In this document: positions 756-58,185 of the stretch, piece by piece
Layout: the number at the start of each line of letters is the position of its first letter
Position numbering within the stretch: the first letter of the stretch is position 1
Assembly: GCA_044507815.1 (NCBI GenBank)
Contig: JBIQIX010000001.1
Coordinates: forward strand, 207,124 to 271,123
Reading direction: 5' to 3'
Origin: Flavobacteriales bacterium
GTDB lineage: Bacteria > Bacteroidota > Bacteroidia > Flavobacteriales_F > PHOS-HE28
DNA length: 64,000 nt
Notes under the pieces: generated by a model
The model's input: the letters and a program-made list of their open reading frames with translations, nothing else
Told to the model about the DNA's origin: nothing
Database searches by the model: none
Position numbers and translations under genes: made by a program

Positions 756-1514
756 ATGAAACTGCCCGTATGGCCCTTGGCGGGGCTTCTGCTTTTCGCG
801 GCGCGGCCGGCACAGGCCCAAAGCGGTATCCAGGATACCAGCATCACCCTGGTGCCGCTCACCATCAGTTATGCCTACCAACTGCCGGGGGGCGACCTGG
901 CGCAGCAATTCGGGGCCAACAGCAACCTGGGCTTCAGCGCCTCGGTGAAATTCAAGAACAATTATTCGCTGGGGCTGGAAGGGAGCTACATCTTCGGCAA
1001 CAAGGTGGTGGACCGCAGCATACTGCGCGAGATGACCACGAGCAACGGTGTGGTGGTGAACCAGGACGGCCGGCCGGCGGGCATCCTGCTGTTTGAACGC
1101 GGCTATACCGTGCTGGCCTTTGCGGGCAAGGTGATCCCCGTGGCGGGCCCCAACCCGAACAGCGGCATTTTGCTGAAGTTGGGCGCGGGCTGGATGTTCC
1201 ACAAACTGCTGGTGCAACACCAGAACGATGTTTTGCCCGCGTTGGAGGGCGAATACCTGAAGGGTTATGACCGCCTTGCGGCGGGCCCCATGGCCATGCT
1301 GTTCGCGGGCTACCAGCACCTGGGGAACAACCGGCTGATCAATTTCACCGTGGGTTTCGAGGTGAATGTGGCCTTCACGCATGCGCTGCGGCCGTGGAAC
1401 TTCGACCAGGGCCGGGCCGATGAGGGCCAGCATGTGGACGGATTGAACGGGCTGCGCTTCGGCTGGACCTTCCCGATCTACAAGCGCCGCGACAACCGCG
1501 AGTACTACCGCTGA
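756..1514 (+). CDS. secreted/outer-membrane hypothetical protein (signal peptide MKLPVWPLAGLLLFAARPAQAQ)
   Basis: In-frame ATG at 756 inside track ORF 72..1514; N-terminal signal peptide; alternating beta-strand-like sequence; stop overlaps kdtA start (ATGA). Confidence 0.5.
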   Translation: MKLPVWPLAGLLLFAARPAQAQSGIQDTSITLVPLTISYAYQLPGGDLAQQFGANSNLGFSASVKFKNNYSLGLEGSYIFGNKVVDRSILREMTTSNGVVVNQDGRPAGILLFERGYTVLAFAGKVIPVAGPNPNSGILLKLGAGWMFHKLLVQHQNDVLPALEGEYLKGYDRLAAGPMAMLFAGYQHLGNNRLINFTVGFEVNVAFTHALRPWNFDQGRADEGQHVDGLNGLRFGWTFPIYKRRDNREYYR

Positions 1515-2782
1515 TGCCGTTGCTGTACGACCTGGGCATCGGTGCGTACCAGGCTGGCATCCGCTTGGTGGCCGCATGGAACCCGAAGGCCAAGGCATGG
1601 GTGCAGGGCAGGAAGAAAAGCTGGGACCGGCTGGAACAGGTGGCCCCGCAACTGCAAGGTTGCCTATGGATGCACTGTGCCAGCGTGGGCGAGTTTGAGC
1701 AGGGGAGGCCTGTGCTGGAGGCGATCAAGGCCCAGCGCCCGGAGCTGCCGGTGCTGCTGACCTTCTTCAGCCCCAGCGGCTATGAGGCGCGGAAAAATGA
1801 ACCGATGGCCACGCATGTGGAGTACCTGCCGCCGGACAGCCGCGCCAATGCCGAGCGCCTGTTGTTGTTGGTGAAGCCGGCCGCCGCCGTGTTCGTGAAG
1901 TATGAGTTCTGGTACCACCATCTGCATGCGCTTTGCCGACACAACGTGCCCGTGTTCCTCATCGCCGCGCTGTTCCGCAGGGATCAACCTTTTTTCCGGT
2001 GGTACGGGCGCGCATGGCGACGCATGTTGGGTTTTTACAAGCGGATCTTCACGCAGGATGAAGCATCCTTGAAACTGCTGGAGGAAGGGCTTGGTCTGGA
2101 ACACGCCGAGGCAAGCGGCGACCCACGTTTTGACCGGGTGGCGGCCATTGCCGCGAACAACGAAGAGTTGCCGCCGGCACGCGCTTTCGCGGGGAATGGC
2201 CCGGTGCTGGTATGCGGCAGCACGTGGCCACAGGACGAGGAGGCCATCGCCGTGGCCCTGCGGGGTTTGGCCTCGGATGCGCCCAAGTGCATCGTCGTTC
2301 CGCATGAGCTGCGTGCCGCGCAGTTGGCCGCGATCGAGCGTGATTTCCCCAAGCCCTTGGCCCGCTGGGGCGAACTGGAGCACAGCCCGGTGCAAAGCGT
2401 GGAAGCCCTGCTGGGCGCAGGGCGCCATGGCACCTTGCTGGTGGACCGCATGGGGCTGCTGGCACGCTTGTACCGCTACGGCCGTGTGGCCTACATAGGC
2501 GGTGGCTTCACGGACGGCATCCACAGTGTGCTGGAAGCGGCGGCCTGGGGCGTGCCGGTGATCGTGGGGCCCCGCCACAAAAAGTTTCCTGAAGTGCAAG
2601 GGCTGATCGATGCAGGGGCAGGGCAGGAGGTGCGTAACGCAGCGGAGCTGCAAGCATCCCTGGGCCGATGGCTGGGGGATCCGCAGGCGCTCAGGAAAGC
2701 TTCCGACGCGGCGGCCCGCTTTGTGAATGAGCGGAAGGGGGGCGCCGGGCGGGTGGCAGGCGCGGTGTTGGCGGCCATGTGA
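1514..2782 (+). CDS. waaA: 3-deoxy-D-manno-octulosonic acid (Kdo) transferase
   Basis: 422-aa ORF with N-terminal WMHCASVGEFEQGRP motif typical of KdtA/WaaA; C-terminal glycosyltransferase fold. Confidence 0.8.
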   Translation: MPLLYDLGIGAYQAGIRLVAAWNPKAKAWVQGRKKSWDRLEQVAPQLQGCLWMHCASVGEFEQGRPVLEAIKAQRPELPVLLTFFSPSGYEARKNEPMATHVEYLPPDSRANAERLLLLVKPAAAVFVKYEFWYHHLHALCRHNVPVFLIAALFRRDQPFFRWYGRAWRRMLGFYKRIFTQDEASLKLLEEGLGLEHAEASGDPRFDRVAAIAANNEELPPARAFAGNGPVLVCGSTWPQDEEAIAVALRGLASDAPKCIVVPHELRAAQLAAIERDFPKPLARWGELEHSPVQSVEALLGAGRHGTLLVDRMGLLARLYRYGRVAYIGGGFTDGIHSVLEAAAWGVPVIVGPRHKKFPEVQGLIDAGAGQEVRNAAELQASLGRWLGDPQALRKASDAAARFVNERKGGAGRVAGAVLAAM

Positions 2783-2804
2783 AAGGCTGCGTAATGGGGT
2801 CCCG

Positions 2805-3170
2805 CTACCTCAACTTCGGATTTTGCCCGTGCCGCAGGGCATCGCGCCGGGTGCGTGTTTCCATCTTCTTCGCCCATGATGCTCCCAGGTCGGTGCCGGT
2901 CTGGTTGGCCAAGCATAGCACCACGAAAAGCACATCCGCCAGTTCCTCGCCGAGGTCCTTGGCCTTGTCGCTTTCCTTTTCGCTTTGCTCGCCGTAGCGG
3001 CGCGCCATGATCCGGCCCACCTCGCCCACCTCTTCGGCAAGCATGGCCATGTTGGTAAGCTCGTTGAAGTAGCGCACGCCCACTTGCTGGATCCATGCAT
3101 CCACCTCGGCCTGCAAGGCGGCCACGTGTTTTTCTGCCGGCATTGGGGCCGGGGCGGGTCGTTTGTTCAT
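2805..3170 (-). CDS. MazG-like nucleotide pyrophosphohydrolase
   Basis: YFNELTNMAMLAEEVGEVGRIMARRYGEQS...KDLGEELADVLFVVLCLANQTG = MazG/NTP-PPase EEXX(E/D) helices; start MNKRP chosen (cat at 3168-3170); 4-nt ATGA overlap with dtd. Confidence 0.7.
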   Translation of the reverse strand: MNKRPAPAPMPAEKHVAALQAEVDAWIQQVGVRYFNELTNMAMLAEEVGEVGRIMARRYGEQSEKESDKAKDLGEELADVLFVVLCLANQTGTDLGASWAKKMETRTRRDALRHGQNPKLR

Positions 3171-3619
3171 TCCTTCAGTCGGCTGTCGATCACAATGGTA
3201 ACAGGGCCGTCGTTCACGAGCGATACCTGCATATCGGCGCCGAACTCGCCGCTGCGCACGGCCCCTGCCACCATGGTGCTGAGCAGTTGCTTGGCGCGCA
3301 GGTAAAGCGGTATGGCCTCCCCGGGCCGTGCGGCGCGGATATAACTGGGCCGGTTGCCCTTGCGGGTGCTGGCGTGCAGGGTGAACTGGCTTACCAGCAG
3401 CACTTCGCCGCGCACCTCGTCCACATCCAGGTTCATCTGGCCCTGGGCATCGGCGAAAATGCGCAGGCGGGCCAGTTTGCCGCAGATCCATTCGACCTCC
3501 TGCAGGGTGTCGCCGGCCTCAATGCCCAGCAACACCAACAGCCCCTTGCCGATGCGCGCATGCTCCGCCCCGCCGATGTGCACGGCGGCATGGGATACGC
3601 GCTGCACCACGGCACGCAT
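3167..3619 (-). CDS. dtd: D-aminoacyl-tRNA deacylase
   Basis: MRAVVQRVSHAAVHIGG...VSQFTL...GNRPSY...NDGPVTIVIDS, near-canonical Dtd sequence; 150 aa from internal Met of track ORF 3167..3700. Confidence 0.85.
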   Translation of the reverse strand: MRAVVQRVSHAAVHIGGAEHARIGKGLLVLLGIEAGDTLQEVEWICGKLARLRIFADAQGQMNLDVDEVRGEVLLVSQFTLHASTRKGNRPSYIRAARPGEAIPLYLRAKQLLSTMVAGAVRSGEFGADMQVSLVNDGPVTIVIDSRLKE

Positions 3620-4434
3620 CAGTAAGCGTCCTTCTTCAGCGCGGCGGCCTTGCCGGCGGCCCGCTGTTCCAAGGGCCGGCCGGTGATGGCATCGAGCCAA
3701 ACGCCGTACATGGGGTTGGGCAGCATGATGAAGTGGCCCCGCAGCGTATCGGCCAGGGCATCCACCAAGGGCTTGCCGTCCGTGGTGCCACGGTCCTTGA
3801 GGCGCTGATCGAAATCGGTGAGCTGGTCGCCGGCCTGGAGCACGATGGTGTGCGTGCGCTGCACCACGGCACGCCGCGCGGTCTTGTCGCTGGTGCCGTC
3901 CATCAGCAGCACGTGCTGCTCATCGGCCATGGGAAAGCCCAGTGCGGCGAGGTTGCGCAGGGTGGGCGCCAGCTCATCCACCTCGCGGTTGGAGATGTAG
4001 AACACGGCGCAGCCCTTGGCCGCGGCATACTGGAGGAATTCCACCGCGCCGGGCAGGGCCCTTGCCGCGCCCTTGGCGGTCCATGCCTTCCAGCCCTCGG
4101 GCGTGTAGGTGCGGCCCAGCACGGCGTTGGTCACCTGATAGGGGCTGTTGTCGAGCACGGTTTCATCGATGTCCACCACCACGGCCGGCGGCAGCGGGTA
4201 GGTGCGCTGCAGGGCCTGGTCCAGCCGGATGCGGGCCAGCTCATAGCCCTGCTGGAAGAGGCGGTGCACCTCTGCGGAATAGTGCTGATAGATGACGGCA
4301 TCCACGTTCTGTTGGGCGAGGATGGCATGGGCATCCGCCCCGGAAGTCCCTTGCGCCACGGGGGCCGGGGTGCGGCAGGAAACAATGGACAGGGCGGCCA
4401 CCGCAACGAGGGGGAGATGTGTTTTATGGTGCAT
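3619..4434 (-). CDS. 5'-nucleotidase / class B acid phosphatase, lipoprotein e(P4) family (HAD superfamily)
   Basis: VVDIDETVLDNSPY motif; lipoprotein signal MHHKTHLPLVAVAALSIVSC; start re-picked at cat 4432-4434. Confidence 0.7.
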   Translation of the reverse strand: MHHKTHLPLVAVAALSIVSCRTPAPVAQGTSGADAHAILAQQNVDAVIYQHYSAEVHRLFQQGYELARIRLDQALQRTYPLPPAVVVDIDETVLDNSPYQVTNAVLGRTYTPEGWKAWTAKGAARALPGAVEFLQYAAAKGCAVFYISNREVDELAPTLRNLAALGFPMADEQHVLLMDGTSDKTARRAVVQRTHTIVLQAGDQLTDFDQRLKDRGTTDGKPLVDALADTLRGHFIMLPNPMYGVWLDAITGRPLEQRAAGKAAALKKDAY

Positions 4435-4864
4435 GCAAGAGCGTTGAACGCCAGGCAAAGTAAGGCACCGGGCTGGGCACGGGCCTGCTTGGCCATGCCG
4501 GTGGCCGGTAGGCGCTGGAAGTGGTGAACCTTCCTGGCGCCTGCGGCACCGCTCCCGCGTGAGGGACAGGAGCGGCGGCCGGCCACTGGCGTGCCGCAAG
4601 GCGTGCAGCGTGCGAGGAGGCTGCGACGCAGGAGCAGACCCCGCAGCCGCATGCACGCCCGGCAGGCCGGGGCCGCCACAGCGGATGGCCCGACCGCTTG
4701 CTTGACGGCCACCGCCGGCCTGCCCCGGTACGCCGGGCCGGCAAGCAAGCGGGCACGCCCAAATACCGCCTGACCCCCTGTTGCGCCGGGTGCCGCAGCA
4801 CGGGCACAGCGATGACCTGCATCAGAAAAGCGGGCCTATCGGTCCCGTACCTTTGCACCTTGAA

Positions 4865-6739
4865 ATGGATACGATCCAACCGACCAGTGGGAAGACCACT
4901 GAAGTACGCGAAAAAGTGGTGATCCTGTTTGCCGGCGACAGTGGCGACGGGATCCAGTTGACGGGGAGCCAGTTCACGGATACGAACGCACTTTTCGGCA
5001 ACGATGTAAGCACGTTCCCCAATTACCCGGCGGAGATCCGCGCGCCACAGGGCACCATTGCCGGTGTTAGCGGCTACCAGCTGCACTTCGGCAGTGTTGA
5101 CGTATTCACCCCCGGCGACCAGTGCGATACGCTGGTGGTGATGAACGCGGCCGCGCTGAAGGCCAACCTGGCCAAACTGAAGAAGGGCGGGACGATCATT
5201 GCGAACAGCGATGGCTTTGACAGCAAGAACCTGCGCTTGGCGGGCTACGCCGAGGAGGCGAACCCGCTGACGGACCACAGCCTGGACAACTACGTGCTGC
5301 ACACGGTGGATGTAACGAAGCTGACGCGCAACGCCCTGGAGGGCACCAGCCTGGGCATGAAGGAAAAGGACCGCAGCAAGAACATGTTCGTGCTGGGTTT
5401 CGTGCATTGGATGTACGGGCGCAAGCTGGACCGGCCGAAGCTTTTCCTGGAGCGCAAATTCAAGAGCCGGCCCGAGCTGCTGGAGGCGAACCTGGCGGTA
5501 CTACAGGCGGGCTACAACTTCGGCGATACGAGCGAGACCTTCACCACGCGGTACGAGGTGAAGCCCGCACCCATGCCCAAAGGGCACTACCGCAACATAA
5601 CGGGCAACCAGGGCGTGGCGATCGGGCTGATCGCCGCGGCGCAGAAGGCGGGGCTGGAGCTGTTCTACGGCAGCTACCCGATCACCCCGGCCAGCGACAT
5701 CCTGCACGAATTGTCGCGCAACAAGCATTTCGGGGTGAAGACCTTCCAGGCGGAGGATGAGATCGCGGCGGTATGTTCCTCCATCGGTGCGAGCTACGGC
5801 GGGGCCTTGGGCGCCACCGCCAGCAGCGGCCCCGGCATTGCGCTGAAGACCGAGGCCCTGGGCCTGGCGGTGATGCTGGAGATACCCTTGGTGGTGGTGA
5901 ACGTGCAGCGGGGCGGGCCCAGCACGGGCATGCCCACCAAGACCGAGCAGGCCGACCTTTGGCAGGCGGTGCACGGCCGCAATGGCGAGGCACCCATGCC
6001 GGTGCTGGCGGCCAGCAGCCCCACCGATTGCTTTGAAATGGTGTTTGAGGCGGCCAAGCTGGCCGTGGAGCACATGACGCCGGTGATGCTGCTGACGGAC
6101 GGCTACATAGCGAACGGGGCGGAGCCATGGCGCTTTCCCGAGGCGAAGGACCTGCCGGCGATCAAGCCGCCCTACGCCAGGCCGCACGAGGGCGGCGAGG
6201 AGGCGCCCTTCCTGCCCTACGAGCGCGATGGGCGCGGGGTTCGGCCCTGGGCCGTACCCGGCATGCGCGGCTTGCAGCACCGGATCGGCGGCATTGAAAA
6301 GGAGGACAAGACAGGCAACATCAGCTACGACCCGCAGAACCACCAGTTGATGGTGCGGCTGCGCGCCGGGAAAGTGGCGCGGATCGCGGATACCTACCGG
6401 CCGATCCGGCTGGACAGCGGCCCGCCCAACGGCGAACTGCTGGTGGTGGGCTGGGGTTCCACATACGGGGCCATACGCACGGCCGTGCTGGAGCTGCAAC
6501 AGGAAGGTTTCAGCGTGGCGCATGTGCACCTGCGCCACATGTTCCCCTTCAACCCGGGCCTGGGCGGCCTGCTGAAGCGCTACAACAAGGTGCTGGTGCC
6601 CGAAATGAACAATGGACAGCTGCTGCAGATGCTGCGCGCCGAATACTTAGTGGACGCGCAGGGCCTGAACAAGGTGCAGGGGCTGCCCTTCACCAGCGAC
6701 GAGATCCGCACCGGGGTGCTCAACTTGTTGACACAATGA
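4865..6739 (+). CDS. korA: 2-oxoglutarate:ferredoxin (2-oxoacid:acceptor) oxidoreductase alpha subunit
   Basis: Long conserved match pattern to KorA (…GYQLHFGS…DTLVVMNAAAL…GPSTGMPTKTEQADL…); start at MDTIQPT (ATG 4865). Confidence 0.8.
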   Translation: MDTIQPTSGKTTEVREKVVILFAGDSGDGIQLTGSQFTDTNALFGNDVSTFPNYPAEIRAPQGTIAGVSGYQLHFGSVDVFTPGDQCDTLVVMNAAALKANLAKLKKGGTIIANSDGFDSKNLRLAGYAEEANPLTDHSLDNYVLHTVDVTKLTRNALEGTSLGMKEKDRSKNMFVLGFVHWMYGRKLDRPKLFLERKFKSRPELLEANLAVLQAGYNFGDTSETFTTRYEVKPAPMPKGHYRNITGNQGVAIGLIAAAQKAGLELFYGSYPITPASDILHELSRNKHFGVKTFQAEDEIAAVCSSIGASYGGALGATASSGPGIALKTEALGLAVMLEIPLVVVNVQRGGPSTGMPTKTEQADLWQAVHGRNGEAPMPVLAASSPTDCFEMVFEAAKLAVEHMTPVMLLTDGYIANGAEPWRFPEAKDLPAIKPPYARPHEGGEEAPFLPYERDGRGVRPWAVPGMRGLQHRIGGIEKEDKTGNISYDPQNHQLMVRLRAGKVARIADTYRPIRLDSGPPNGELLVVGWGSTYGAIRTAVLELQQEGFSVAHVHLRHMFPFNPGLGGLLKRYNKVLVPEMNNGQLLQMLRAEYLVDAQGLNKVQGLPFTSDEIRTGVLNLLTQ

Positions 6740-7901: not shown

Positions 7902-10103
7902 TCACTGCACCATTACGGGCATTCCACCGGCGGGGTGGTCCAAGGGGCGGAGCAGGTACAGGCCCGCGGGTAGGCCGGAAAGATCGAATTGCGCGGGCTG
8001 CGAACGCACCACGTACTCCGCGACCTGCTGGCCATTGGCCGCGTGCAGCCGGAAGGTTTGGCCCAGGCCGGCATTGGTCACGGTGAGCGTGCCCTGCACC
8101 GGCATGGGATAGAGCTGCGGCCCGTTGGCCTGATCTATAGGCTGCATGCCCAGGGTGCCGAAGAAATGGTCCTCGCTTTCCTCAATGCAGCCGTCAGCAT
8201 CGGTGGTGCGCACGGTGTACTGCCCGTTGGCGGCGGGTGTCCATTGCTGCTGAATGGCGCCGGCCAGTTCCGAACCGTCCAGGAGCCATTGGTAGGCCAC
8301 GGCCGGTGAGCTCACCAATTCCATGTTCACCCAGGTGATCTCCGGCGTGGTGCCAAGCGTGGTCACATCAAAGGCATCGCTGTACGTGAAAGAGCCGTCG
8401 GTTACGGTGAGGGTCATGGTTGCCGTGCCGACCGGACGGCCAGGCACTGCGCTGATGGTGGCCTGGAAAAGGCTGTCGTTGACCTGCACCACATGCAAGG
8501 CGGTGTCCGGGAGCACGGCCTGGTTGCTGCTGGCCAGGGCAGGCTGGCCGATGGCATCACCGTTGTTGGTGGCTTTCAGGGTGATCGCCGCACCCGCCGT
8601 ACGGCAGAAGCTTGTGCCTGTGGGCAAGGTGAAGGTGGCATCATCGTCGCGGTTCACCACGGCGAAGTGTGCTGGCGGCATGGCCGCGTAGGCGGGGTCT
8701 GCCGTGGCCGGGTTCATGGCAGCGATCACGTACAGGTTGATGTCGCCATCGTCCTCGGTATCGTCAAGGCCGGTCACGGCCACCTGTTGCACCTGGTCCC
8801 AAGTGCTGGTGGTGAAGGTGAGCTGGGTGGTGCCCAGGGCGGCCTCGTCGGGGTCGCTCATGGAAAGGTCCACCACCACATCACCCGTGGGCTGCGAACC
8901 CAGGCGCAGCGCCAGCATTTGCGTGGTACCGGTCTCATCCACCACCAAGGGCAGTGGGGCGGTGGTGGCCACGCCGGGGAAGAATGCCCTGCCGAAGGCA
9001 CGCGCATACACACCGTCGCTATCACCCTGCATGCCGTTCCCGCCCCACACCATGATGAACCCCCCGTTCGGCAGCTTGGCCACAGCGGGGTTGCGCTGCT
9101 CGCCGCCAACGGTATTGCTGGCCACCTGCCAGCCGGTCTGTGGCCCGTCCGGTGCCGCGATGTAGTTGGCCCGCACGTTGTAATTCTCTGGATCGTTCAG
9201 GCCGGTCATGTAATTGTTGGTGAGCACCATGGCGCCATCGTCGTACAATTCGCAATCGCTATGGTATTGCGCATACGGTGCGGCCATGTCCCCCAGGCCC
9301 TCGGCCAATTCATTGCCATCCGCGTCCAGCAACTTGCCCCAGAAGTGATCGGTCCCGTTCACGCCGAGCTTCGCATAGATCAGGAGTTGGTCGTGTACAT
9401 TGATGGATACGTTGATCACGTTCACCCCACCGCTGCTGCTGAGCAGGATGGTCTCGGGTGTTTGCGCGAGCAGGTCGGCATTGAAGGTCTTGCGGTAGAT
9501 GTTGCGCGTGCCCGATCCGTTGGAGTACACGGCCACGATGTTGCCATCGCTGGTCCACCGTACCTGCGGCAGTTTGTAGTTGTTGGAAGCGGTTTCGCTG
9601 GCCTGTACTGCGGGCCCCATCCATGCGTGTGCAAGCAGGTCCCATTTGCGCAGGTAGATGTGCGGGCTGGAACTATAGGCCACCAACAATACATCGCCCT
9701 GCACATCCAGGTCCATCTCGGGGCTGCTGCCCACCGGGTAGGTCGCGCTCAGGGTGTTGTCCGCCTGCAGCACCTTCAGGCCGGAGGGGAAGCCTTTCCA
9801 ACCGATCAGGAACCGGCCTTGGCCCCAGTGGTACACGAAGGCGCGTTCGCCGCTGGCCACCACCATTTCATCGGTGAGCGCCTGATGATCGGCACCGTAC
9901 CGGCGCGCCATGATGGTATTGGTGCCGCTGGTCCAAACGATCACGTAGCTGCCATCGGCATCGCTGGCCACATGGGGGAGGCCTTGTGGCCCCTCGATCT
10001 GCTGGTTCACCCGGTATTCATTGGTGAGCGGATTGAGCTGTTGGGCGTGGAGAAGTGGCCCGGACAACAGTGCGAGAACAAGGCCGGTGCGTAACAAATT
10101 CAT
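7902..10103 (-). CDS. large secreted protein with T9SS C-terminal sorting domain (Calx-beta-like segment, beta-propeller-like repeats)
   Basis: Signal peptide MNLLRTGLVLALLSGPLLHAQ; C-terminal ~80 aa …GLYLLRPLDHPAGGMPVMVQ resembles Por_Secre_tail; internal …VAVTGLDDTEDDGDINLYVIAAMN… Calx-beta-like. Confidence 0.6.
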   Translation of the reverse strand: MNLLRTGLVLALLSGPLLHAQQLNPLTNEYRVNQQIEGPQGLPHVASDADGSYVIVWTSGTNTIMARRYGADHQALTDEMVVASGERAFVYHWGQGRFLIGWKGFPSGLKVLQADNTLSATYPVGSSPEMDLDVQGDVLLVAYSSSPHIYLRKWDLLAHAWMGPAVQASETASNNYKLPQVRWTSDGNIVAVYSNGSGTRNIYRKTFNADLLAQTPETILLSSSGGVNVINVSINVHDQLLIYAKLGVNGTDHFWGKLLDADGNELAEGLGDMAAPYAQYHSDCELYDDGAMVLTNNYMTGLNDPENYNVRANYIAAPDGPQTGWQVASNTVGGEQRNPAVAKLPNGGFIMVWGGNGMQGDSDGVYARAFGRAFFPGVATTAPLPLVVDETGTTQMLALRLGSQPTGDVVVDLSMSDPDEAALGTTQLTFTTSTWDQVQQVAVTGLDDTEDDGDINLYVIAAMNPATADPAYAAMPPAHFAVVNRDDDATFTLPTGTSFCRTAGAAITLKATNNGDAIGQPALASSNQAVLPDTALHVVQVNDSLFQATISAVPGRPVGTATMTLTVTDGSFTYSDAFDVTTLGTTPEITWVNMELVSSPAVAYQWLLDGSELAGAIQQQWTPAANGQYTVRTTDADGCIEESEDHFFGTLGMQPIDQANGPQLYPMPVQGTLTVTNAGLGQTFRLHAANGQQVAEYVVRSQPAQFDLSGLPAGLYLLRPLDHPAGGMPVMVQ

Positions 10104-10230
10104 GCTGGTCTTAATTTGTTGGGGGTGCAAGATGGATCAATAAAGCATTGGGCGCTTGCGGGCAGTGCCGTTGCCCTTGGGCATCGAGCAAGCGCCGGGG
10201 TCCATCGCCTTGGCGAAGGGCCGCAGGGTG

Positions 10231-10965
10231 CTAAAGCTTGCCGATGGCTTCCATGACCTGCTGCCGTTTGCGCTGCGAAACAGGCACCGTGGAGCCATCG
10301 GCCAGCACCAGTACACCGCCGTCGCGGTTGAGGAATTTGCGCACCTGGAGCAGGTTCACCAAATGGCTCATGTGCACGCGCTCAAAGCGGTGTGGTGCGA
10401 GCAGTTCCTCGAAGTCCTTCAGTGTGCGTGCCGCCACGATGCGCTCCCCGGTGGTGGTGTAAAGTCGTGTGTAGTTGCCATCGGCCTCGCAGCGTGCGAT
10501 GTCGCGGGGGTCGAGCACATGCAGGCCCTCGGCGCAGGGCACCACCACGCGTTCCTCTCCCGGGGCGGCCATGTTGCGGAGCAACGTTTCCATCTGCGGC
10601 GATCGGGCGGTGGGCAACGCGCGGCGCAGGGCACTGGCCAAAAGGCCGGGATCGGCGGGCTTGAGGAGGTAATCCACGGCCGCGAAGCGGAATGCGCGGA
10701 TGGCGTATTGGTCGTAGGCCGTGATGAAGATGATCTTGGCCTGTTTCCAGGCGGCGCGATCGAGCACCTCGAAGCCGGTGCCGTCACCCAACCGAATGTC
10801 GAGCAGCACCACATCGGGGCGCAGGCGGTCGATCAGGGCAACGGCCGCATCGCGCCCATCGGCCTGCCCGATGACCTCATGCGGTACTTCGCAGGTCTGT
10901 AGGGCATCGCGCAGTGCGGCGCGCGCCGGCGCCTCATCGTCCACGATCAACAACCGCAGTTTCAT
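10231..10965 (-). CDS. LytTR-family two-component response regulator
   Basis: N-terminal receiver (LLIVDDE…LLDIRLGDGTGFEVL) plus C-terminal LytTR DNA-binding domain; 4-nt overlap with upstream kinase. Confidence 0.8.
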   Translation of the reverse strand: MKLRLLIVDDEAPARAALRDALQTCEVPHEVIGQADGRDAAVALIDRLRPDVVLLDIRLGDGTGFEVLDRAAWKQAKIIFITAYDQYAIRAFRFAAVDYLLKPADPGLLASALRRALPTARSPQMETLLRNMAAPGEERVVVPCAEGLHVLDPRDIARCEADGNYTRLYTTTGERIVAARTLKDFEELLAPHRFERVHMSHLVNLLQVRKFLNRDGGVLVLADGSTVPVSQRKRQQVMEAIGKL

Positions 10966-12890
10966 GCCCATACACTGTTCAGCACGGTGCGCACGGTCAC
11001 TTTCGTGCCCTGCGCCCTGCCTTGTCCGTCTTCAAGGTCCACGATCTCCAGCCCGGCAAAGTTGCGCGCGCCGCGGTTGAAGTGCCGAAGGCGCTCGGTG
11101 GTGATCTGCAGCCCGCGCGAAGGAAGTGCCTGCCCCGCGCCGAAGGCAGGGCCGCCCCTGCGGCCCACGCCATTGTCGTGCACGGTGCATTCGAGCAGGC
11201 CGTTGTGCCGCGCCACGGTAACCTGCAAATGGCCCCCGCTGCGCCGGGGCACCAGCCCGTGCACAATGGCGTTCTCCACCAGTGGCTGCAGCAGCATGGG
11301 CAGCATCTCCACCGCATCGGGGTCAACGTTGGGGTGCACCGTTACGGCGTAGGTGAACACACCCGGGTAGCGTGCGGCGCCCACATGCAGGTAGTGCGTG
11401 ATCAGGTCCAGTTCCTGCCGCAGGGGCACAGTGACCTGGCGCGAGCTTTCAAGGATCAGGCGCAACAGGTTGGAGAGGTGGCCCACGTAGGCGGTGGCCG
11501 TGCGGGGGTCGGTTTCGGCGTACAGCCCCGGAATGGTGTTGAGCGAGTTGAAGAGGAAGTGCGGGTCCATTTGCGCGCGCAGGGCCTGCTGCTCCAGTTG
11601 CGCCTCGCGCTGCCGGGCGCGGCCGCGTGCGCGTTGCAGCACCAGCCAGGAGGCCATGCCCACCGCCACGGCCATCAGCAGGGCCGCCACCAGCATCCAC
11701 CGCAACTTTTGCCCGCGCGCCTCGGCCAGTTGGGCGTTGGCGAGCAGCCTCTGGTTTTCGTTTTCCTTCTTCTCCACTTCGTATTTCACGTGCAGTTCGC
11801 GCATCACGGCATCCTTCCCGGCGTTCATCAGCGAATCGGCCAATGCGGTATGGGCCAAATGCGCCTCGTAGGCTTCCTTGTGGCGGCCCATGGCGGCCCA
11901 GGTGCGGGCGCGCGAGAGCAGCACATCCTGCTCGGACCTGCGGTCGCCCAGCGCGCGTGTGATGGCCAACGCCGTGTCCAAATGCGCCAATGCGGCGGCA
12001 GGCTGCCCGGTGCGCACGAGCAGGTCCGCCAGGTAGGGCCTCAACTCACCCAACGACCATTCATCGCGTTGCTGGCGGGCCAGGCTGAGCGCCTGCTCGT
12101 AATAGGTGCGCGCCATTCCGAGGTTTCCCAACCCCTCGTAGGCCAACGCCTGGTTGGTAAGCAACGCCGGGATGTTGCGGTTGAACATGCGCTGCGGGCT
12201 CACTTCGCCGGCGCGCTGCAGCAGCGTCAAGGCCGTATCGTACCGCCCGAGGTCCATTTCCACAACCGCCAGGTTCATCAGGCTGCGGTGCCACGATGCG
12301 CTGTCGCCGGTGGGCCGCCCCGTGGCCACCAGCTGGTTGATCGCGATGGCCTGCCGGAAATGATCGCGCGCCTTTAGCGTGTCGTTGGTACGGGCGTAGA
12401 GCATGCCCACGTTGTTCAATGTGCGCGCCATGCCGGTGCTGTCCGCCAGCTGCTCCTTCAGCCGCAGCGCCAGCAGTTGTTGTTCCAGCGCGGCCGCGGG
12501 GTTGCCCAATAGTTCCAGTACAACGCCCAGGTTGATCCGCGCGGTGGATTCCACGTCGGCAAGCCCATGCTGTTGGGCCATGGCGATCGCCATGCGTTGG
12601 CAACTGGCGGCACTGTCCAACAGGTTGCGCCGTTGCAGGATGTTGCCCAATAGCCCCACGGCCATGGCGTTTGGCTTTACCCTGCCCGCCGATGCTTGGA
12701 TCAGGCCGCGCACGCGTGTTTCGGCACCGGTGTCGTTGCCCTCGGCCAATAGCAGCCGCGCGGAATCAAGCGCAAGAATGAACCGGCTACTGTCCGCGCC
12801 ATGTCCGTTGCCACTTGGCGGTGCTTCCGGCCGGCTGCAAGCCGCCAGCAGCGCGGCAAAAATGATCGGCAGGAGGCGGGTCGGCGGCAT
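10962..12890 (-). CDS. sensor histidine kinase with TPR repeats and LytS-type (His_kinase) domain
   Basis: TPR-rich periplasmic region, TM helix, …MDPHFLFNSLNTI… motif, HATPase_c; start re-picked at MPPTRLLPIIFAALLAACS (cat 12888-12890). Confidence 0.75.
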   Translation of the reverse strand: MPPTRLLPIIFAALLAACSRPEAPPSGNGHGADSSRFILALDSARLLLAEGNDTGAETRVRGLIQASAGRVKPNAMAVGLLGNILQRRNLLDSAASCQRMAIAMAQQHGLADVESTARINLGVVLELLGNPAAALEQQLLALRLKEQLADSTGMARTLNNVGMLYARTNDTLKARDHFRQAIAINQLVATGRPTGDSASWHRSLMNLAVVEMDLGRYDTALTLLQRAGEVSPQRMFNRNIPALLTNQALAYEGLGNLGMARTYYEQALSLARQQRDEWSLGELRPYLADLLVRTGQPAAALAHLDTALAITRALGDRRSEQDVLLSRARTWAAMGRHKEAYEAHLAHTALADSLMNAGKDAVMRELHVKYEVEKKENENQRLLANAQLAEARGQKLRWMLVAALLMAVAVGMASWLVLQRARGRARQREAQLEQQALRAQMDPHFLFNSLNTIPGLYAETDPRTATAYVGHLSNLLRLILESSRQVTVPLRQELDLITHYLHVGAARYPGVFTYAVTVHPNVDPDAVEMLPMLLQPLVENAIVHGLVPRRSGGHLQVTVARHNGLLECTVHDNGVGRRGGPAFGAGQALPSRGLQITTERLRHFNRGARNFAGLEIVDLEDGQGRAQGTKVTVRTVLNSVWA

Positions 12891-29260: not shown

Positions 29261-30307
29261 ATGTACAAGCTGCTCCGCCCGCTGTTATTCAGCCTTTCGC
29301 CCGAGCGTGCCCACCATTTCACCTTCAACCTCCTCGAAGCCGCCAAGCGAATTCCCGGGGCGCTGGCGCTTGTGGGCGGGAAACGGCCCCAGGCGCATGC
29401 GGCGGTACAGGTCATGGGACTGCACTTTCCCGGGCCGGTGGGCCTGGCGGCCGGCATGGACAAGGACGCCAAGCATGTGGATGCCTTGGCACGCATCGGT
29501 TTCGGCCATGTGGAAGTGGGCACCCTAACGCCCGTGGCACAGCCAGGGAATGAGCGTCCCCGCCTCTTCCGCCTCAAGGCCGACCATGCCCTGATCAACC
29601 GCATGGGCTTCAACAACGGCGGCGTGCAGGCCGCGGTACAACGCTTGCGGAAACGCGCCCCCGGCATTGTGGTGGGGGGCAACATCGGCAAGAACAAAGT
29701 GACGCCGAATGAGCGGGCCATCGACGATTACGTGAAGTGCTTCGAAGCACTGCACCCGGTGGTGGACTATTTCACGGTGAACGTGAGCAGCCCCAATACC
29801 CCCGGCCTGCGCGCCTTGCAGGAGAAAGGGCCGCTGCTGGAGATCCTGCAGGAACTGAAAAGGCGCGATGCCTCGAAGACCGTGCAACGCCCCATCCTGC
29901 TGAAGATCGCCCCGGACCTGACGGATGAACAGTTGGACGACATTGTTGCCGTGGTGAAGGAAAGCGGCATTGCCGGCGTGATCGCCACCAACACCACCAT
30001 CGCGCGTGCAAGGTTGAAGATGCCAAAGCCGGAATTGGACGCTATTGGGGCAGGTGGATTGAGCGGCCCGCCGGTGCGGGCACGAAGCACCGAGGTGGTG
30101 AGGTACCTGCGGGCTCGGCTGCCCAAGCCCGTGGTCATCATCGGCGTGGGCGGCATCGATAGCGCAGAAGCCGCCATGGAAAAACTGGATGCGGGCGCGG
30201 ACCTGCTGCAGGTGTACACCGGATTGGTCTATGAAGGGCCGGGGCTGCTGGAGCGGATCAATGCGGCCTACGCTGCGCTACGGCTAACAAAGGGGAACCA
30301 CGGATGA
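29261..30307 (+). CDS. pyrD: dihydroorotate dehydrogenase (quinone), class 2
   Basis: …GLHFPGPVGLAAGMDKDA…NVSSPNTPGLR… canonical PyrD; ATG 29261 chosen over track TTG 29216. Confidence 0.85.
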   Translation: MYKLLRPLLFSLSPERAHHFTFNLLEAAKRIPGALALVGGKRPQAHAAVQVMGLHFPGPVGLAAGMDKDAKHVDALARIGFGHVEVGTLTPVAQPGNERPRLFRLKADHALINRMGFNNGGVQAAVQRLRKRAPGIVVGGNIGKNKVTPNERAIDDYVKCFEALHPVVDYFTVNVSSPNTPGLRALQEKGPLLEILQELKRRDASKTVQRPILLKIAPDLTDEQLDDIVAVVKESGIAGVIATNTTIARARLKMPKPELDAIGAGGLSGPPVRARSTEVVRYLRARLPKPVVIIGVGGIDSAEAAMEKLDAGADLLQVYTGLVYEGPGLLERINAAYAALRLTKGNHG

Positions 30308-30494
30308 ACATGGATGAACACGGATTCCAGGGTTTTACCATGGATGAACATGGATGGACACGGATCCGTGGTTGGCATCCATTCGCCGCCAAGCGGCTAA
30401 AAGATCCGTGGTCATCGGTGGGTATCCGTGGTTCGCACTCAATCCGCCGCCAGGCGGATAAATTCGACAAGCCAAATAAAAATCCGTGGTTGCC

Positions 30495-43753: not shown

Positions 43754-43840
43754 ACCGGAGTGGCGGAATTGGTAGACGCGCACGTTTCAGGGGCGTGTGA
43801 CCGAAAGGTTGTAAGGGTTCGACTCCCTTCTCCGGTACCA
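43754..43840 (+). tRNA. tRNA-Leu (anticodon CAG), type II with long variable arm
   Basis: Acceptor ACCGGAG/CTCCGGT, D-arm GGCGGAATTGGTAGACGC, anticodon stem CACGT/GCGTG with loop TTCAGGG (U33, CAG, G37), long variable arm TGACCGAAAGGTTGTAA, T-arm GGGTTCGACTCCC, discriminator A, encoded CCA. Confidence 0.85.
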
Positions 43841-43844
43841 GCAG

Positions 43845-43870
43845 AGCGGCGCAAGCCGCTTTGTTGTTTC
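43845..43870 (+). terminator. rho-independent terminator after tRNA-Leu
   Basis: AGCGGC-GCAA-GCCGCT hairpin followed by TTGTTGTTTCC. Confidence 0.6.
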
Positions 43871-43970
43871 CGGTACCTGCGTACGGCCGGCCCAATACCG
43901 ATCTCGCCCGATCAGGAACTGGCCAGTTTGGCAATAGGACGAATGGACGGATTCGCCAATTCGTGGGTGG

Positions 43971-52394: not shown

Positions 52395-53285
52395 ATGGAC
52401 CTGATCATAAAAGGATTGAGCAAAACCTATGCGAACGGCGTGAAGGCGCTGGATGCCGTTGACCTGCATATCCCCACCGGCATGTTCGGTTTGCTGGGGC
52501 CCAACGGCGCGGGCAAAAGCACGCTCATGCGCATTCTCGCCACCTTGCAGGAGGCCGATGCCGGCAGCGCCATGCTGGGTGATATCGATGTATTGAAGGA
52601 CAAGGATGCCGTGCGGCGCGTGCTGGGCTACCTGCCACAGGAGTTCGGCGTGTACCCCAAGGTGGGCGCCCACGAAATGCTGGACCACATCGCGCTGCTG
52701 AAGGGAGTAACGGTGCGCTCCGAAAGAAAGGACCTGGTGGAGGCCCTGCTGCACCGGGTGAACCTATGGGACCAGCGCAAGCGGCGGCTCAGCGGGTTCA
52801 GCGGCGGCATGAAGCAACGCTTCGGCATTGCACAATGCCTGATCGGCGATCCCAAACTGATCATTGTGGATGAACCCACCGCCGGCCTGGACCCCGGCGA
52901 GCGCAACAGGTTCTACAACCTGCTTACCGAGATCGGGGAGAATGTGGTGGTGATCCTCAGCACCCACATCGTGCAGGACGTGAAGGAGCTGTGCAGCAAC
53001 ATGGCCATCATCAACAAGGGCCGCGTGCTTTATGCCGGCCCGCCGGACGATGCACTGCGCGCCATGCACGGCAAGGTGTGGGAGAAGACCATTGTAAAGG
53101 CCGAACTGGAAGGATTTGCACGAAGCGGGAAACTGATCAGCCACCGCCTGGTGGCCGGTACGCCCGTGGTGCACCTGTTGAGCGATGAACGGCCCGGGGA
53201 AGGTTTCGTGCAGGTGGAACCGGGCCTGGAGGATGTGTTCTTCGGGGCCATCAGCCAAAGCAACACCACAGTGCCCACCGCATGA
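52395..53285 (+). CDS. ABC transporter ATP-binding protein
   Basis: Walker A GPNGAGKST, signature LSGGMKQR, Walker B LIIVDEPTAGLD; start at MDLIIKGL (ATG 52395). Confidence 0.85.
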   Translation: MDLIIKGLSKTYANGVKALDAVDLHIPTGMFGLLGPNGAGKSTLMRILATLQEADAGSAMLGDIDVLKDKDAVRRVLGYLPQEFGVYPKVGAHEMLDHIALLKGVTVRSERKDLVEALLHRVNLWDQRKRRLSGFSGGMKQRFGIAQCLIGDPKLIIVDEPTAGLDPGERNRFYNLLTEIGENVVVILSTHIVQDVKELCSNMAIINKGRVLYAGPPDDALRAMHGKVWEKTIVKAELEGFARSGKLISHRLVAGTPVVHLLSDERPGEGFVQVEPGLEDVFFGAISQSNTTVPTA

Positions 53286-56200
53286 CACGCCGATTCTTCC
53301 GTTTCGAGGTGCGCTATTGGCTGCGCCAGCCCATGGTGTACATCTTCCTGCTCATCCTGGGCCTGCTGCCCTTCTTCGCCACCATATCGGACAAGGTGAC
53401 CCTGGGCGGGGGCATGGGCAATGTGTACCGCAATGCGCCCTACGTGGTGTACCAGTTCTACGGCGCCATGAGCTTCTTGGCCATCCTGATGGTGACCGCC
53501 TTCGTGAATGGCACGGCCATCCGCGACTTCGCCAGCGACACCGCGCAGATCATCTTCTCCACCCCCGTGGGCAAGCGCAGCTACCTGCTGGGGAAATTCC
53601 TCGGGAGCACCTTCATTGCCGCGCTGCCCTTGGTGGGTGTTTCGCTGGGCCTGGTGCTGGGCAGCTGGTGGCCGGGCATCGATCCCCTGCGGTTGGGGCC
53701 CAATAAGGTGCTCCCGCACATGGAGGCCTTTCTGGTGATCGGCCTGCCCAACGTGCTTTTCGCGGCCGCAATCGTTTTCGCCGTGGCCATCCTGGTGCGC
53801 TCCACCATGGCCTCGTTCATCAGTGCCATCGCCTTGTTCGTGGGCTACAGCGTGGCGGCCAGCTTCATGAGCGACATCGAGAACCAGCAGCTGGCCGCCC
53901 TGCTCGATCCCTTCGCCGGCGCAACGGTGGACCTGGTGACCAAGTACTGGTCGGTGGACGACCGGAACACCGCCCTGCTGCCCCTCAACGGCGTGCTGCT
54001 TTGGAACCGCTTGCTGTGGATCGGCGTGTCGGCCGTTATCTTCCTTTTCGGCTATGTGCGCTTCCGCTTCACCGATCGTGCCCGCAAGGGCAAGCCAGCG
54101 GCCGGGCCCGAGGCGCCGCCGGCCTATGCCGCGCCGGTGGCATTGCCCCAAGTGGGGCTGCACTACGGAGCCGCCAGCGCATGGAAGCAATACGCCACGC
54201 TCTTCCGCCGCGACCTGCTGGGCATGCTCAAGAGCACACCCTTCATCATCATCATGGCGTTGGGGCTGATCCAGCTCTTCTTCGCGCTCTCCTTCGTTAC
54301 CAGCATGTACGGCAACACCACGTACCCGGTAACCTACAACGTGGCCGACATGATGGCCGGCGTGCTCACCATTTACCTGTTGATCATTGTGGCCTACTAC
54401 GGCGGCCAGCTGGTGTGGAAGGAGCGCGACCCGCGCATGGACGGCATCATCAACGCGCTGCCCATGGCCACGCGCACCAACTTCCTGGCCAAGCTTTCGG
54501 CCTTGGCCGCTGTACTGCTGGCCGTGCTCCTGTTCGCTACGCTGGCCGGCATCGTTACCCAGCTCATCAACGGCTACACGCGCTTGCAGCCCGGGGTGTA
54601 CCTCAGCTACTTCATACTGCCCCAATTCATCTTCTGCCTGTTCTGGGGCGTGGTGTCGCTATTGGTGCATGTGTTGGTGAACAACAAGTACATGGGGTGG
54701 TTCGCGTTCATCCTGGTGTTCGTGCTCAACGCCTTCGTTTGGACAGCGCTGGACGTGCAATCGAACCTGGTGCGCCTGAACGGGTCCAGCGGCCTGGTGT
54801 ATTCCGACATGAACGGTTTCGGGCCGTACCTGGGCAATTGGCTTTTCTTCAAGGCCTATTGGCTGGTGTTCGCGGCCCTGATGCTGTGGGCGGGCTACCT
54901 GTTCGTGCTGCGCGGCAACGACACCGGCATGCGCATGCGGCTGCGCGCCGCTGGGCAGCGCATGCGCGGCTCGTGGCCGCTGGGCGCGGCGCTGGCGGGC
55001 GTGTTCGTGGTGCTGGCGGCCTTGGGCTGGTACAACACCAAGGTGATCAACACCTACCGCACCAGCGACCAGATGGAGGAACGGCAAGTGGCCTACGAAC
55101 GGGGCTACCGCAAATACATCAACCTCGCCCAACCCCACTTCACCGGGCTCGAATACTTCATCGACCTCGATCCAGCCGGGCGCAAGCTGCAGTACGAGGT
55201 GAAGATCACCGTGCAGAACAAGCATCAAGCGCCCATCGACACGCTGCTGTTGGACCTGCCCCAGTACATGAACGTGCAACTGGACATACCGGGCGCGCAA
55301 CTGGTGGTGGATGACAGCGCACTGTACCAACGCATCTACAGGCTGGAGCCGCCCCTGCAACCGGGCGACAGCCTGCGCTTCACCGCAAAGGGCGGCTGGG
55401 CCCCCAAGGGCATAAGCAATGCCGTGGAAATGACCTCCATCGTCGATAACGGCACCTTCCTGAACAATATGCAGCTGATCCCCCGCATCGGCTACGACCC
55501 CGGAAACGAGATCATGGACCGCGAAAAGCGCCGCAAGCATGGCCTGCCGCCCAACGAGCGCATGCCCAAACTGGCCAGCGACCCGGCCAAGCGCATGGAC
55601 AACTACCTGATGCGCAACAGCGATTGGGTGAGCGTGCGCACCACCATCGGCACCGCGCCCGACCAAATTGCAGTGGCCCCCGGCTCGCTGCGAAAGGAGT
55701 GGACCGAAGGGGGCAAGCGCTGGTTCACCTACCAGCTCGACTACAAGGCCCTCAATTTCTACTCCTTCCTCAGCGCCCGCTACGAGGTGGCCCGGGAAAC
55801 CTGGATAGACCCGCTGGGCAAGGAACCCGATGTGGCGCTGGAGGTGTACTACCAGAAGGAACACGGCGTGAACGTGCCCCGCATGCTCAACAGCCTGCAC
55901 CGCTCGCTGGACTACTTCACCGCCAATTTCGGCCCGTACCGGCAAAAGCAGGCCCGCATCATCGAATTCCCGCGCTACGCCTCATTCGCCCAGGCCTTCC
56001 CCGGCACCATGCCGTACTCAGAGGCCATCGGCTTCATCACCGATCTTACGGCCGAAAAGGACATCGACATGGTGTTCTACGTGGTAGCGCACGAAACAGG
56101 GCACCAATGGTGGGCACACCAGGTGATCGGTGCCGCCATGCAGGGCAGCACCCTGCTGAGCGAAAGCATGGCGCAGTACTCCGCCCTGATGGTGATGGAA

Positions 56201-56893: not shown

Positions 56894-57147
56894 GGACCGC
56901 GCTTGCGTGCAATGCCCAGGCACCGCACGCACCGCCGGCCAACCCGGGGTGCATGCGGGTACGAACCACGGGCCCCGCGTAAGGGACAGCAGCGGCGGCC
57001 CGGTGCGGGCGCGGCCCTGCGTGCGCGTGCAGCGAGGAGGTGACCGGAGGGAACCCCTGCAGCGCCGCGCACGCCGGCCGCGGCAAAACGGCCACAGCGG
57101 ATGGCCCGGCCCCGTGCGCAGCCCTGTGGGTGGTGGGGATACGCCCC

Positions 57148-58185
57148 TCAATCACCACCCTCCAGCGTGCCCTTCTCGCTCAGCAATACCGCCGCCCAGT
57201 GCGTGCCCGGGAATTGGGCCATGACCAGCACCATGACCACGGTGATGGGCACCGAAAGGAACATGCCCACAACGCCCCAAAGCCAGCCCCAGAAGGCAAG
57301 GGTGAGAAGGACCACCAGCGGGCTTACGTTGAGTGAGTTGCCCATGAGGCGCGGCTCCAGCACGTTGCCCACCAGCAGCTGCACCGCACCCACGCTGCCC
57401 AGCACCCACAAGGCCGGGCCGAACGCGGCGAATTGCACGCCGGCCACCACCGCCGGGAACAACGTGGCCAGCAGCGAACCCACGGTGGGGATGTAGTTGA
57501 GCAGGAAAATGAGCATGGCCCAGAAGAAGGCGAAATCCACGCCGATGATCAACAGCGCCACGTAGCTGAGCACACCGGTGAGCAGGCTCATGGCGGTCTT
57601 GAGGGTTACGTAATGGCTGAGCGAGGCATCCACGCGTTCGAGCATTTCGCGCGTGCGTTGCACGCCGCCGCCGTTGTGCATGGCCAGCAGCTTGCGGCGG
57701 GCGTGCCGCTCCTCCAGCATGATGAACGCCACGTAGATCAGCACCAGCGTACCGTTGCCCAGCACACTGGTAAGCGCGTTGAGCACCATGGTGAGCACCG
57801 TGCCCACATCCATGCCCTGCAGGAACTTGTCGAACTGGCGGCCCAGGTCGAAGCCGGTGACCTCCTCCAGCTGCCCACGCATGGCCGACAGGTTGCGCTC
57901 GTACTGCGGCAGTACCTCGGCCACGCCGTTGATGTTGGAGATGAGCAGGCTGGTGAAGAACGCCAGCACCAGCGAAATGGTGATGAACGCCAGCGTGCCC
58001 CGCAACCAGCGCGGCAGCATGCGCCCCTTGAAGGTGATGCGCTTGAACCGCACCTGCACAAGGCGGATCATGTACCACACCACCAGGGCCATGGCGAACG
58101 GGATGAGCACCGCCGAGGTGTAGCGGAGAATGATCACCGAGGCGATGACCACGAACAGGCCGAGGGCGATGCGCTTTAGTGCCAT
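57148..58185 (-). CDS. AI-2E-family transporter (PerM/UPF0118)
   Basis: 8 TM helices with conserved …GNSLNVSPLVVLLTLAFWGWLWG… segment; start at MALKRIALG. Confidence 0.7.
   Translation of the reverse strand: MALKRIALGLFVVIASVIILRYTSAVLIPFAMALVVWYMIRLVQVRFKRITFKGRMLPRWLRGTLAFITISLVLAFFTSLLISNINGVAEVLPQYERNLSAMRGQLEEVTGFDLGRQFDKFLQGMDVGTVLTMVLNALTSVLGNGTLVLIYVAFIMLEERHARRKLLAMHNGGGVQRTREMLERVDASLSHYVTLKTAMSLLTGVLSYVALLIIGVDFAFFWAMLIFLLNYIPTVGSLLATLFPAVVAGVQFAAFGPALWVLGSVGAVQLLVGNVLEPRLMGNSLNVSPLVVLLTLAFWGWLWGVVGMFLSVPITVVMVLVMAQFPGTHWAAVLLSEKGTLEGGD

Follow-up and report, generated by a model that had tools for sequence, protein, structure and literature searches.

A GC-rich intergenic repeat of an uncultured Flavobacteriales genome as a probable long form of the Flavo-1 element

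Two intergenic copies of one element

Two intergenic spacers in the 64-kb window (by which we mean the whole stretch of DNA that was analysed) share a GC-rich sequence, and this raises the question of what kind of element it is, and whether it belongs to a family that is already known. The preliminary description of this DNA had reported two intergenic segments with the same order of conserved blocks in the same orientation, which was borne out by alignment, 27-mer counts, and a profile search. The first conserved block, the 27-nt CCCGCGTRAGGGACAGSAGCGGCGGCC, occurs exactly twice in the window (4554-4580 and 56974-57000), where shuffled sequences are expected to yield 0.00 occurrences. The last conserved block lies at 4674-4692 in copy 1 and at 57090-57108 in copy 2. 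Across the core segments (4554-4697 and 56974-57114), the copies are colinear on the same strand, with a mean column identity of 77% in the pairwise alignment, against an earlier estimate of roughly 70-75%. An nhmmer profile of the pair found these two sites only when run against the 64-kb window (E-values of 1e-38 and 3e-41), with the next best match at E>1. The covariance models R1 and R2, which are introduced below, found no third copy in the 64-kb window.

The boundaries of the element needed some revision. The coordinates first given for copy 2 (56974-57114) held, but the start proposed for copy 1 (4574) is 20 nt late, since the first block named in the same description lies at 4554-4580, and both elements reach further in the 3' direction. 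When the copies are aligned with their flanks, the core is followed by a variable hairpin and then by a conserved (G)GG-N-CACGC-CC(C)AA motif, which sets the whole-element extents at ~4557-4760 for copy 1 and ~56977-57147 for copy 2. The element is ~180-215 nt long, with a GC content of 76-78%. Both copies are intergenic. Indels between them are not multiples of three, and within the conserved blocks no codon position varies, the third included. A short conserved reading frame was rejected on these last two grounds, and the earlier view that neither copy lies in a credible coding sequence stands.

Copy 1 occupies a 430-nt spacer between the start of a divergent class-B acid phosphatase gene at 4434 (271 aa; 3619-4434, minus strand) and the start of korA at 4865 (624 aa; 4865-6739, plus strand), according to gene calls on the identical public contig L001, where the phosphatase also carries PF03767. 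Copy 2 lies between the stop of an ABC-2 permease/M1 peptidase fusion gene (1203 aa; 53282-56893, plus strand) and the stop codon (57148-57150, minus strand) of a convergent gene for an AI-2E family transporter. The latter is a maximal open reading frame at 57148-58335 on the minus strand, and its orthologue in locus L069 carries PF01594.

Other repeats and structures were seen in the window. An inverted repeat, AGGCGCTGGAAG ... CTTCCTGGCGCCT, lies at 4510-4542 between the acid-phosphatase start and copy 1, outside the family consensus. An alternative hairpin, GGGTGGTG...CACCACCC, at 57128-57160 covers both the end of copy 2 and the final AI-2E codons. Here the C-terminus of the AI-2E protein begins to differ from its counterpart in the closest relative, L069, which places a variable-segment junction inside the 3' end of the AI-2E gene. 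Elsewhere, an intergenic-looking array with a 10-nt periodicity (30287-30365) contains four overlapping copies of (A/G)CCA(C/T)GGATGAACA(T/C)GGAT and similar sequences. At 43754-43895, an 84-nt tRNA (48.7 bits) has directly behind it a match to an L17 ribosomal-protein leader that, at 29 bits, stays below the gathering score of 34.9.

Counting copies in relatives, a check proposed in the preliminary description, brought up further members in several Flavobacteriales genomes. A scan of a genome collection with the 20-mer GTRAGGGACAGSAGCGGCGG returned 49 loci, among which the element is present only in those from uncultured Flavobacteriales MAGs; Streptomyces and the other loci do not contain it. 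The window itself carries gldB and gldC. A metagenome scan contributed no more than two further distinct sequences, and in viral contigs two pattern scans gave 7 chance matches, 0 of which were confirmed by a covariance model. Copies number 2 in the 64-kb window and 3-4 within 8 kb of locus L043, and the MAG JAGFIV01 has at least four (the long L004, L005, and L019a and the short L019b). R1, a covariance model built from nine long full copies, scores all long copies at 109-174 bits and also recovers two much shorter relatives, L019b (L019 2401-2517) and L043b (L043 3035-3168). Locus L043 holds three confirmed members (882-1076, 3035-3168, and 4464-4648) and one weak match (5438-5535) within 5 kb (882-5535). 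They surround a gene for a 280-aa protein that, judging from the positions of open reading frames, is apparently absent from the orthologous L054 stretch.

The nine full copies all fit one architecture, a three-way junction formed by a closing helix (P0), a rod (P1-P4), and a hairpin (P5) closed by CCC/GGG. Covariation across aligned copies, which had been suggested as a check on the element, is strong. In a MAFFT alignment of the nine copies, the 51 pairs are 87.8% paired, compared with 37-42% when the partners are slid, and double changes are found in 21 pairs compared with 5-9; none of 500 shuffles reached the observed values. P0 consists of 5 bp, GCGUG/CACGC, which in copy 2 has become GCGUA/UACGC through a compensatory double change. 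P1 is invariant among the GC-rich long copies and contains fixed purine-purine mismatches. Most covariation in the long copies lies in P2-P4, and P0 and the closing pairs of P5 each show a single double change. The short copies L019b and L043b have no P2-P4 and keep P0, P1, and P5, and they add compensatory changes of their own: GCGUU/AACGC, GGGAUAG/..AUAGCCC, and CGGAUU/AAAAGCCG. In these copies, pair 17-173 changes from C-G to U-A, and pair 13-177 from G-C to C-G.

These parts can be followed through both window copies on the plus strand. Copy 1 with short flanks (4551-4766) scores 140.3 bits with R1 (E 4e-26). Its P0 5' strand, GCGTG (4557-4561), pairs with CACGC (4754-4758), a pairing that covaries across the family. 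Then follow the invariant 5' block of P1, GGGACAGGAGCGGCGGCC (4563-4580), and the distal rod P2-P4 (4581-4673), which has GAGGAGG at 4614-4620 and an apical loop in the minimum free energy fold. The rod is variable in sequence, and double changes keep the pairing in helices 4, 5, and 7. The 3' block of P1, CGCCACAGCGGATGGCCCGA (4674-4693), is followed by the P5 hairpin, CCGCTTGCTTG...CAAGCAAGCGG (4694-4752), which folds and whose covarying closing pairs are G-C here and C-G elsewhere. The 3' strand of P0 and the CCAAATAC tail (4754-4766) complete the element. Copy 2 with short flanks (56971-57152) scores 123.1 bits with R1. It is made up of the P0 5' strand GCGTA (56977-56981), which pairs with TACGC (57140-57144), the P1 blocks GGGACAGCAGCGGCGGCC (56983-57000) and GGCCACAGCGGATGGCCCGG (57090-57109) with the distal rod P2-P4 between them (57001-57089), and a P5 hairpin closed by CCCC/GGGG (57110-57138). 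Its P0 3' strand and CCC tail (57140-57147) abut the AI-2E stop codon.

Relationship to the Flavo-1 family

Flavo-1 is already known as a structured repeat dispersed in the intergenic DNA of Flavobacteriia. The motif (Rfam RF01705) was inferred computationally by Weinberg et al. (2010, Genome Biol 11:R31; PMC2864571), and its published seed alignment, which reads GCGUGAGGGAUAGAAGCGG...ACAGCGGAUAGCCCGACC, includes a subtype GCGU[GU]A-GGGAUA-GAAGC-GG ... ACAGCGGAUAGCCCGACC (PMC2864571). We consider it likely that both window segments are diverged copies of a long-stem, GC-rich form of this ‘GCGUGA’ subtype of Flavo-1, with a three-way junction architecture.

The conserved strands of P1 agree with those of Flavo-1. 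On the 5' side, the Flavo-1 strand GCGU[GU]A-GGGAYW-GNAGC-GG corresponds to GCGT[GA]A-GGGACA-G[GC]AGC-GG in the window copies, with the P1 block of copy 1 matching the GGGAYW-GNAGC-GG part. On the 3' side, the P1 block of copy 1 matches AGCGGAWRGCCCGR, and the Flavo-1 strand AGCGGAWRGCCCGRCC corresponds to CAGCGGATGGCCCG[AG]C[CG] in the window copies (CCCGACCG in copy 1 and CCCGGCCC in copy 2). The P1 layout with its A.G, G.A, and A.G non-canonical pairs is also common to both. In the joint table, A16.G174 is present in 21/21 sequences, G19.A171 in 20/20, and A21.G169 in 18/20, and pairs 13-15, 17, 18, 22, and 23 are canonical and covary. Across 40 seed sequences, the same three mismatches are near-invariant, and the window copies carry the identical bases at these positions. 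The pairs around them vary in the seed: pair 13-177 is GC in 24 sequences, CG in 13, and AU in 3, and pair 18-172 is AU in 19, UA in 18, and GC in 3. The host range of Flavo-1 (Flavobacteriia/Bacteroidota, with many dispersed intergenic copies) agrees with that of the element described here.

The likeness extends beyond the published motif. The flanks stored with the seed alignment contain the hairpin P5 and then N-CACGC-CC(C)AAA, both outside the published motif and the 76-position Rfam model, so that the CACGC motif and tail of copy 1 have counterparts beside published members. P0 covaries in these flanks as GCGUG/CACGC, GCGUU/AACGC, and GCAUU/AAUGC. When 11 copies found here are aligned jointly with 10 published copies, pairing reaches 95.5% over the 19 core pairs, against 27-43% for slid partners; double changes occur in 12 of these pairs. 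R2, a joint covariance model of the copies found here and published members, recovers two Bacteroides plasmid seed members outside its training set, at 55 and 62 bits, with P0 and P5 included.

A covariance model made from published members only (R3; 10 seed sequences and 2 plasmid copies, P0 and P5 included) allows the comparison to be made from the other side. R3 recovers the short sister copies L019b (54.4 bits) and L043b (49.7 bits) and the long copies L025 (37.8 bits, E 4e-6) and L053 (33 bits, E 5e-5), with E-values across the four from 6e-10 to 5e-5. For copy 2, R3 gives 16.1 bits over the full length, with an E-value of 8e-4 in a targeted search of 501 nt and 0.4 in 257 kb. Copy 1 is not found alone by R3, which gives 14.3 bits and a partial alignment with a shifted 5' end. 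Consequently, the membership of copy 1 is transitive, by way of R1 (140 bits) and the shared invariant bases. In the reverse direction, R1, which was made from long forms only, does not recover the AT-rich classical members.

The Flavo-1 identity was missed in the preliminary description, which is understandable given that Rfam's own model gives no score on these copies. An Rfam scan of the window and both copy regions, at the gathering threshold and at E<=10, returned zero matches at the copies. The gathering threshold of 42 bits is reached neither by the window copies nor by the sister copy L043b, which scores 31.5 bits with RF01705 (3036-3110; E 0.009 in 58 kb and 3.9e-5 locally) with the helix and loop layout of P1. 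Seed members on the plasmids pBF9343 and p5482 likewise fall below it, so we do not regard the 42-bit threshold as discriminating for the ‘GCGUGA’ subtype.

These plasmid members, at L074 721-800 and L075 2644-2728 (pBF9343 and p5482), are on conjugative Bacteroides plasmids and are not called at the Rfam gathering score. The pBF9343 copy lies between a recombinase gene and a gene for an ArdC-like ssDNA-binding (anti-restriction) protein. Other structured elements were considered and rejected, as they had no Rfam match and their junction strands or ends did not fit: hammerhead, twister, 6S, SRP, 5S, tmRNA, and Y RNA, attC sites, template and variable repeats of DGRs, and fragments of retrons and group II introns.

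Genomic context, turnover, and possible roles

The genes beside copies of the family are unrelated: korA, dnaE, an acyl-CoA dehydrogenase gene (orthologous in two species), carB, and genes for a TPR histidine kinase, an Fe-alcohol dehydrogenase, a PKD-domain protein, and the AI-2E transporter. Six copies lie in spacers of divergent genes, frequently with 25-55 nt to the left-hand start codon, and four lie 0-25 nt from the stop codon of a convergent gene; convergent genes face two long and two short copies. A -7-like box of the Bacteroidetes type follows the element at korA and at two acyl-CoA dehydrogenase genes, so that the element is not a leader of these genes. At korA this box, TACCTTTG, is at 4848-4855, 9 nt before the ATG, and it is kept in L063 and L067. 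A similar box, CACCTTTG, lies 11 nt before the start of the LigT-like gene in L043. The -7-like boxes placed 9-11 nt before starts suggest, from the sequence, that 5' leaders in this lineage are very short or absent. When element orientation is set against the local GC skew, no consistent sign emerges: one and the same element yields +0.030 or -0.001 according to the flank taken, and copies in inverted pairs are found within 1-2 kb of each other.

Close relatives differ in which sites are occupied. In L063, where KorA is 96% identical, there is no copy upstream of korA and only the proximal ~90 nt are shared. Instead, positions 1-430 of L063 hold GC-rich repeats of their own (GCGCAGAG...GAAATGCC and GGCAACTTGGC) that are unrelated to Flavo-1. 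The korA upstream region is also devoid of a copy in L067 and L068, which have the same synteny and a 114-nt spacer, and in L064-L066. At the other locus, L069, where the neighbour protein is 94% identical, has two genes in place of copy 2 and no copy between the peptidase and AI-2E genes. A scan of ~195 kb from relatives found only one 40-nt stump (L064 12896-12935; TCGCGTGAGGGA..CCTGCCTT..ACGACACGCCCA). It is located directly at the 3' end of korB and keeps both ends (the 5' and 3' strands of P0 and the tail) with almost no interior, and R2 and R3 score it at 19-20 bits. This stump could be the footprint of a deletion. Where a copy is absent from a relative, the segment has been replaced and not cleanly excised. 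In the preliminary description, lack of conservation in relatives had been named as a result that would speak against the element; here the outcome is divided, as the family is conserved but both window insertions are absent from the closest relative.

In L022, two 95%-identical direct copies flank a module of kinase, LytTR regulator, and 781-aa protein genes that is orthologous to window positions 7947-12800. In the window, this module (minus strand) encodes a TPR histidine kinase, a LytTR response regulator, and a 733-aa protein and lies between korB and nadE. It is missing from that position in L064, L066, and L067, where nadE follows korB directly or after small genes. Taken over the family, the element is dispersed in multiple copies, is independent of the function of neighbouring genes, and is gained or lost between close relatives.

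What role could such an element have? The reading we tentatively put forward, at somewhat less than even odds, is that of a REP-like dispersed structural module whose junction is recognised by a putative trans-acting factor when it is single-stranded or passively transcribed. The three-way junction would be a self-contained recognition module for a putative trans-acting protein, and it would form on single-stranded DNA or on a passively transcribed element. The family would then behave like REP-type dispersed repeats, and neither like a gene-specific regulator nor like a promoter-driven sRNA gene. The junction and the fixed non-canonical pairs are conserved from Flavobacterium with 30% GC to these genomes with 62% GC, which implies recognition by a conserved factor. 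The low copy number and the identity of only 77% between the window copies speak against a recently active repeat. Also counting against this mechanism are the replaced segments at the empty sites, the lack of an orientation bias with respect to GC skew, and the absence of IS200 or RAYT annotation from the F. psychrophilum supplementary tables; in addition, G.U cells (10) barely exceed A.C cells (7), which is too little to decide on the strand or between RNA and DNA. A more specific version, in which Flavo-1 with its long forms would be the Bacteroidota counterpart of REP/REPIN, seems possible but doubtful: the repeat would be non-autonomous, its ssDNA junction would be the substrate of a candidate mobilising or maintenance enzyme, and P0 and P5 would belong to the recognition unit. 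Among the options first raised for the element, a structured multi-copy repeat family has thus been upheld by covariation and further copies. A shared regulatory module is disfavoured by the unrelated flanking genes, and a strict MITE by inverted termini of 5 bp and the lack, by eye, of a target-site duplication.

The alternative that survives best, though we regard it as unlikely, is that each copy is an independently transcribed gene for a trans-acting sRNA whose binding partners, a protein or target RNAs, would contact the junction and rod. Rfam labels Flavo-1 as ‘Gene; sRNA’. Strong covariation is consistent with this, as are the invariant purine-purine mismatches, which are typical of protein-binding RNAs. 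Mismatch cells on the plus strand are more often purine-purine (19) than pyrimidine-pyrimidine (9). In addition, three species retain the copy at the LigT-like locus, with only 60-70% identity between their LigT proteins. However, by eye there is no Bacteroidetes -33/-7 promoter upstream of the element and no shared TAnnTTTG/TTG motif, and at several loci just 25-55 nt are free before divergent start codons. No U-tract terminator lies 3' of the element, where the tail is A-rich, and the four copies 0-25 nt from the stop codon of a convergent gene are also difficult to reconcile with an sRNA gene. For classical Flavo-1, published arrays and RNA-seq data do not show consistent sense transcription; the 128 F. 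psychrophilum copies are sense, antisense, or untranscribed, with no pattern. No promoter or terminator is shared by the copies, and together with their packing at gene ends, their gain and loss, and the literature, this argues against a promoter-driven sRNA and strongly against a gene-specific leader. Presence/absence turnover and the published transcriptome data favour a REP-like repeat over a conventional sRNA.

The remaining explanations fare considerably worse. A classical MITE, moved by a DDE transposase that acts on terminal inverted repeats and duplicates the target site, would account for the presence/absence polymorphism, the recent duplication, the long imperfect palindrome, and the L064 stump with both of its ends. 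Yet the inverted termini, which are P0, measure only 5 bp where the criterion is >=10 bp, and no flanking direct repeats were seen by eye in 13 copies. Moreover, the rod mismatch positions are invariant across genera and not random, and the fold, with its three-way junction, is more complex than a simple hairpin; we therefore find this origin highly improbable. It is slightly less probable still that the element is a cis-regulatory leader or riboswitch of the downstream gene, which for copy 1 would be korA. A co-oriented gene does start 100-220 nt downstream in 7 of the 10 long copies, but these genes are functionally unrelated, and the readable -7-like boxes of korA and acyl-CoA dehydrogenase follow the element. 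Convergent genes face copy 2 and L053, and korA of close relatives has the same proximal promoter region with no element. Finally, despite the GC content of the element, at which open frames are expected by chance, compositional similarity of GC-rich spacers or a short conserved reading frame is scarcely credible in view of the 27-mer counts, the profile E-values, the non-triplet indels, the conserved blocks with no third-position variation, and the compensatory nature of the differences between copies within helices.

Comparison with known systems

If these assignments are correct, they add a GC-rich, long-stem form of Flavo-1, present in uncultured Flavobacteriales, that escapes Rfam annotation. 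They would also make the ‘GCGUGA’ subtype a three-way junction with a closing helix (P0) and a second hairpin (P5) that the published motif does not include and that covary in AT-rich Flavobacterium, on Bacteroides plasmids, and in these GC-rich genomes. A further new aspect is that copies come and go between close relatives at rearrangement junctions. For annotation, a model including P0 and P5 would recover these copies. Flavo-1 is among Rfam's most numerous ‘sRNA’ families, and if the parallel with REP/REPIN were true, one of the most abundant of these families would be a DNA-level element.

Another Rfam family, DUF2693-FD (RF02926), gives a weak partial match to L043b over UGACGGAUUGxAxCGGCA, at 19.8 bits, which is far below the gathering score of 44.5. 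Its proposed fold differs, and the window copies have no match to it.

The REP/REPIN and ERIC-type repeats of Proteobacteria resemble the element in being multi-copy, intergenic, imperfect palindromes with a conserved structure. They also occur in any orientation to genes, are passively transcribed, and are gained and lost between relatives. However, there is no sequence similarity, the structure here is a three-way junction and not a hairpin and has no GTAG-type head, and copies within a genome are much more diverged. The terms RAYT and IS200 are absent from the F. psychrophilum supplementary tables, a check of annotation and literature only.

Flavo-1 itself remains the closest relative, with clear differences. 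The distal rod is 103-134 nt here compared with 40-68 nt in published members, making P2-P4 60-90 nt longer, pair 17-173 is C-G instead of U-A, and the GC content reaches 76-78%. Copy number in the sampled sequence is low, whereas the F. psychrophilum genome has 128 matches. The Rfam model omits P0 and P5, and its consensus (uuuUAGCC...ccGAUuG) appears to follow another, ‘UAGCC’ subtype. Against these differences stands a detailed likeness. P1 has the same geometry in both (3 bp, an A.G mismatch, 2 bp, a 3x3 loop of G.A, N.N, and A.G, and 2 bp), and both have a distal GCGAGGA motif. P5, (N)CACGC, and the CC(C)AA tail are found in the flanks of published members, and in both cases the element is multi-copy, intergenic, and hosted by Flavobacteriia.
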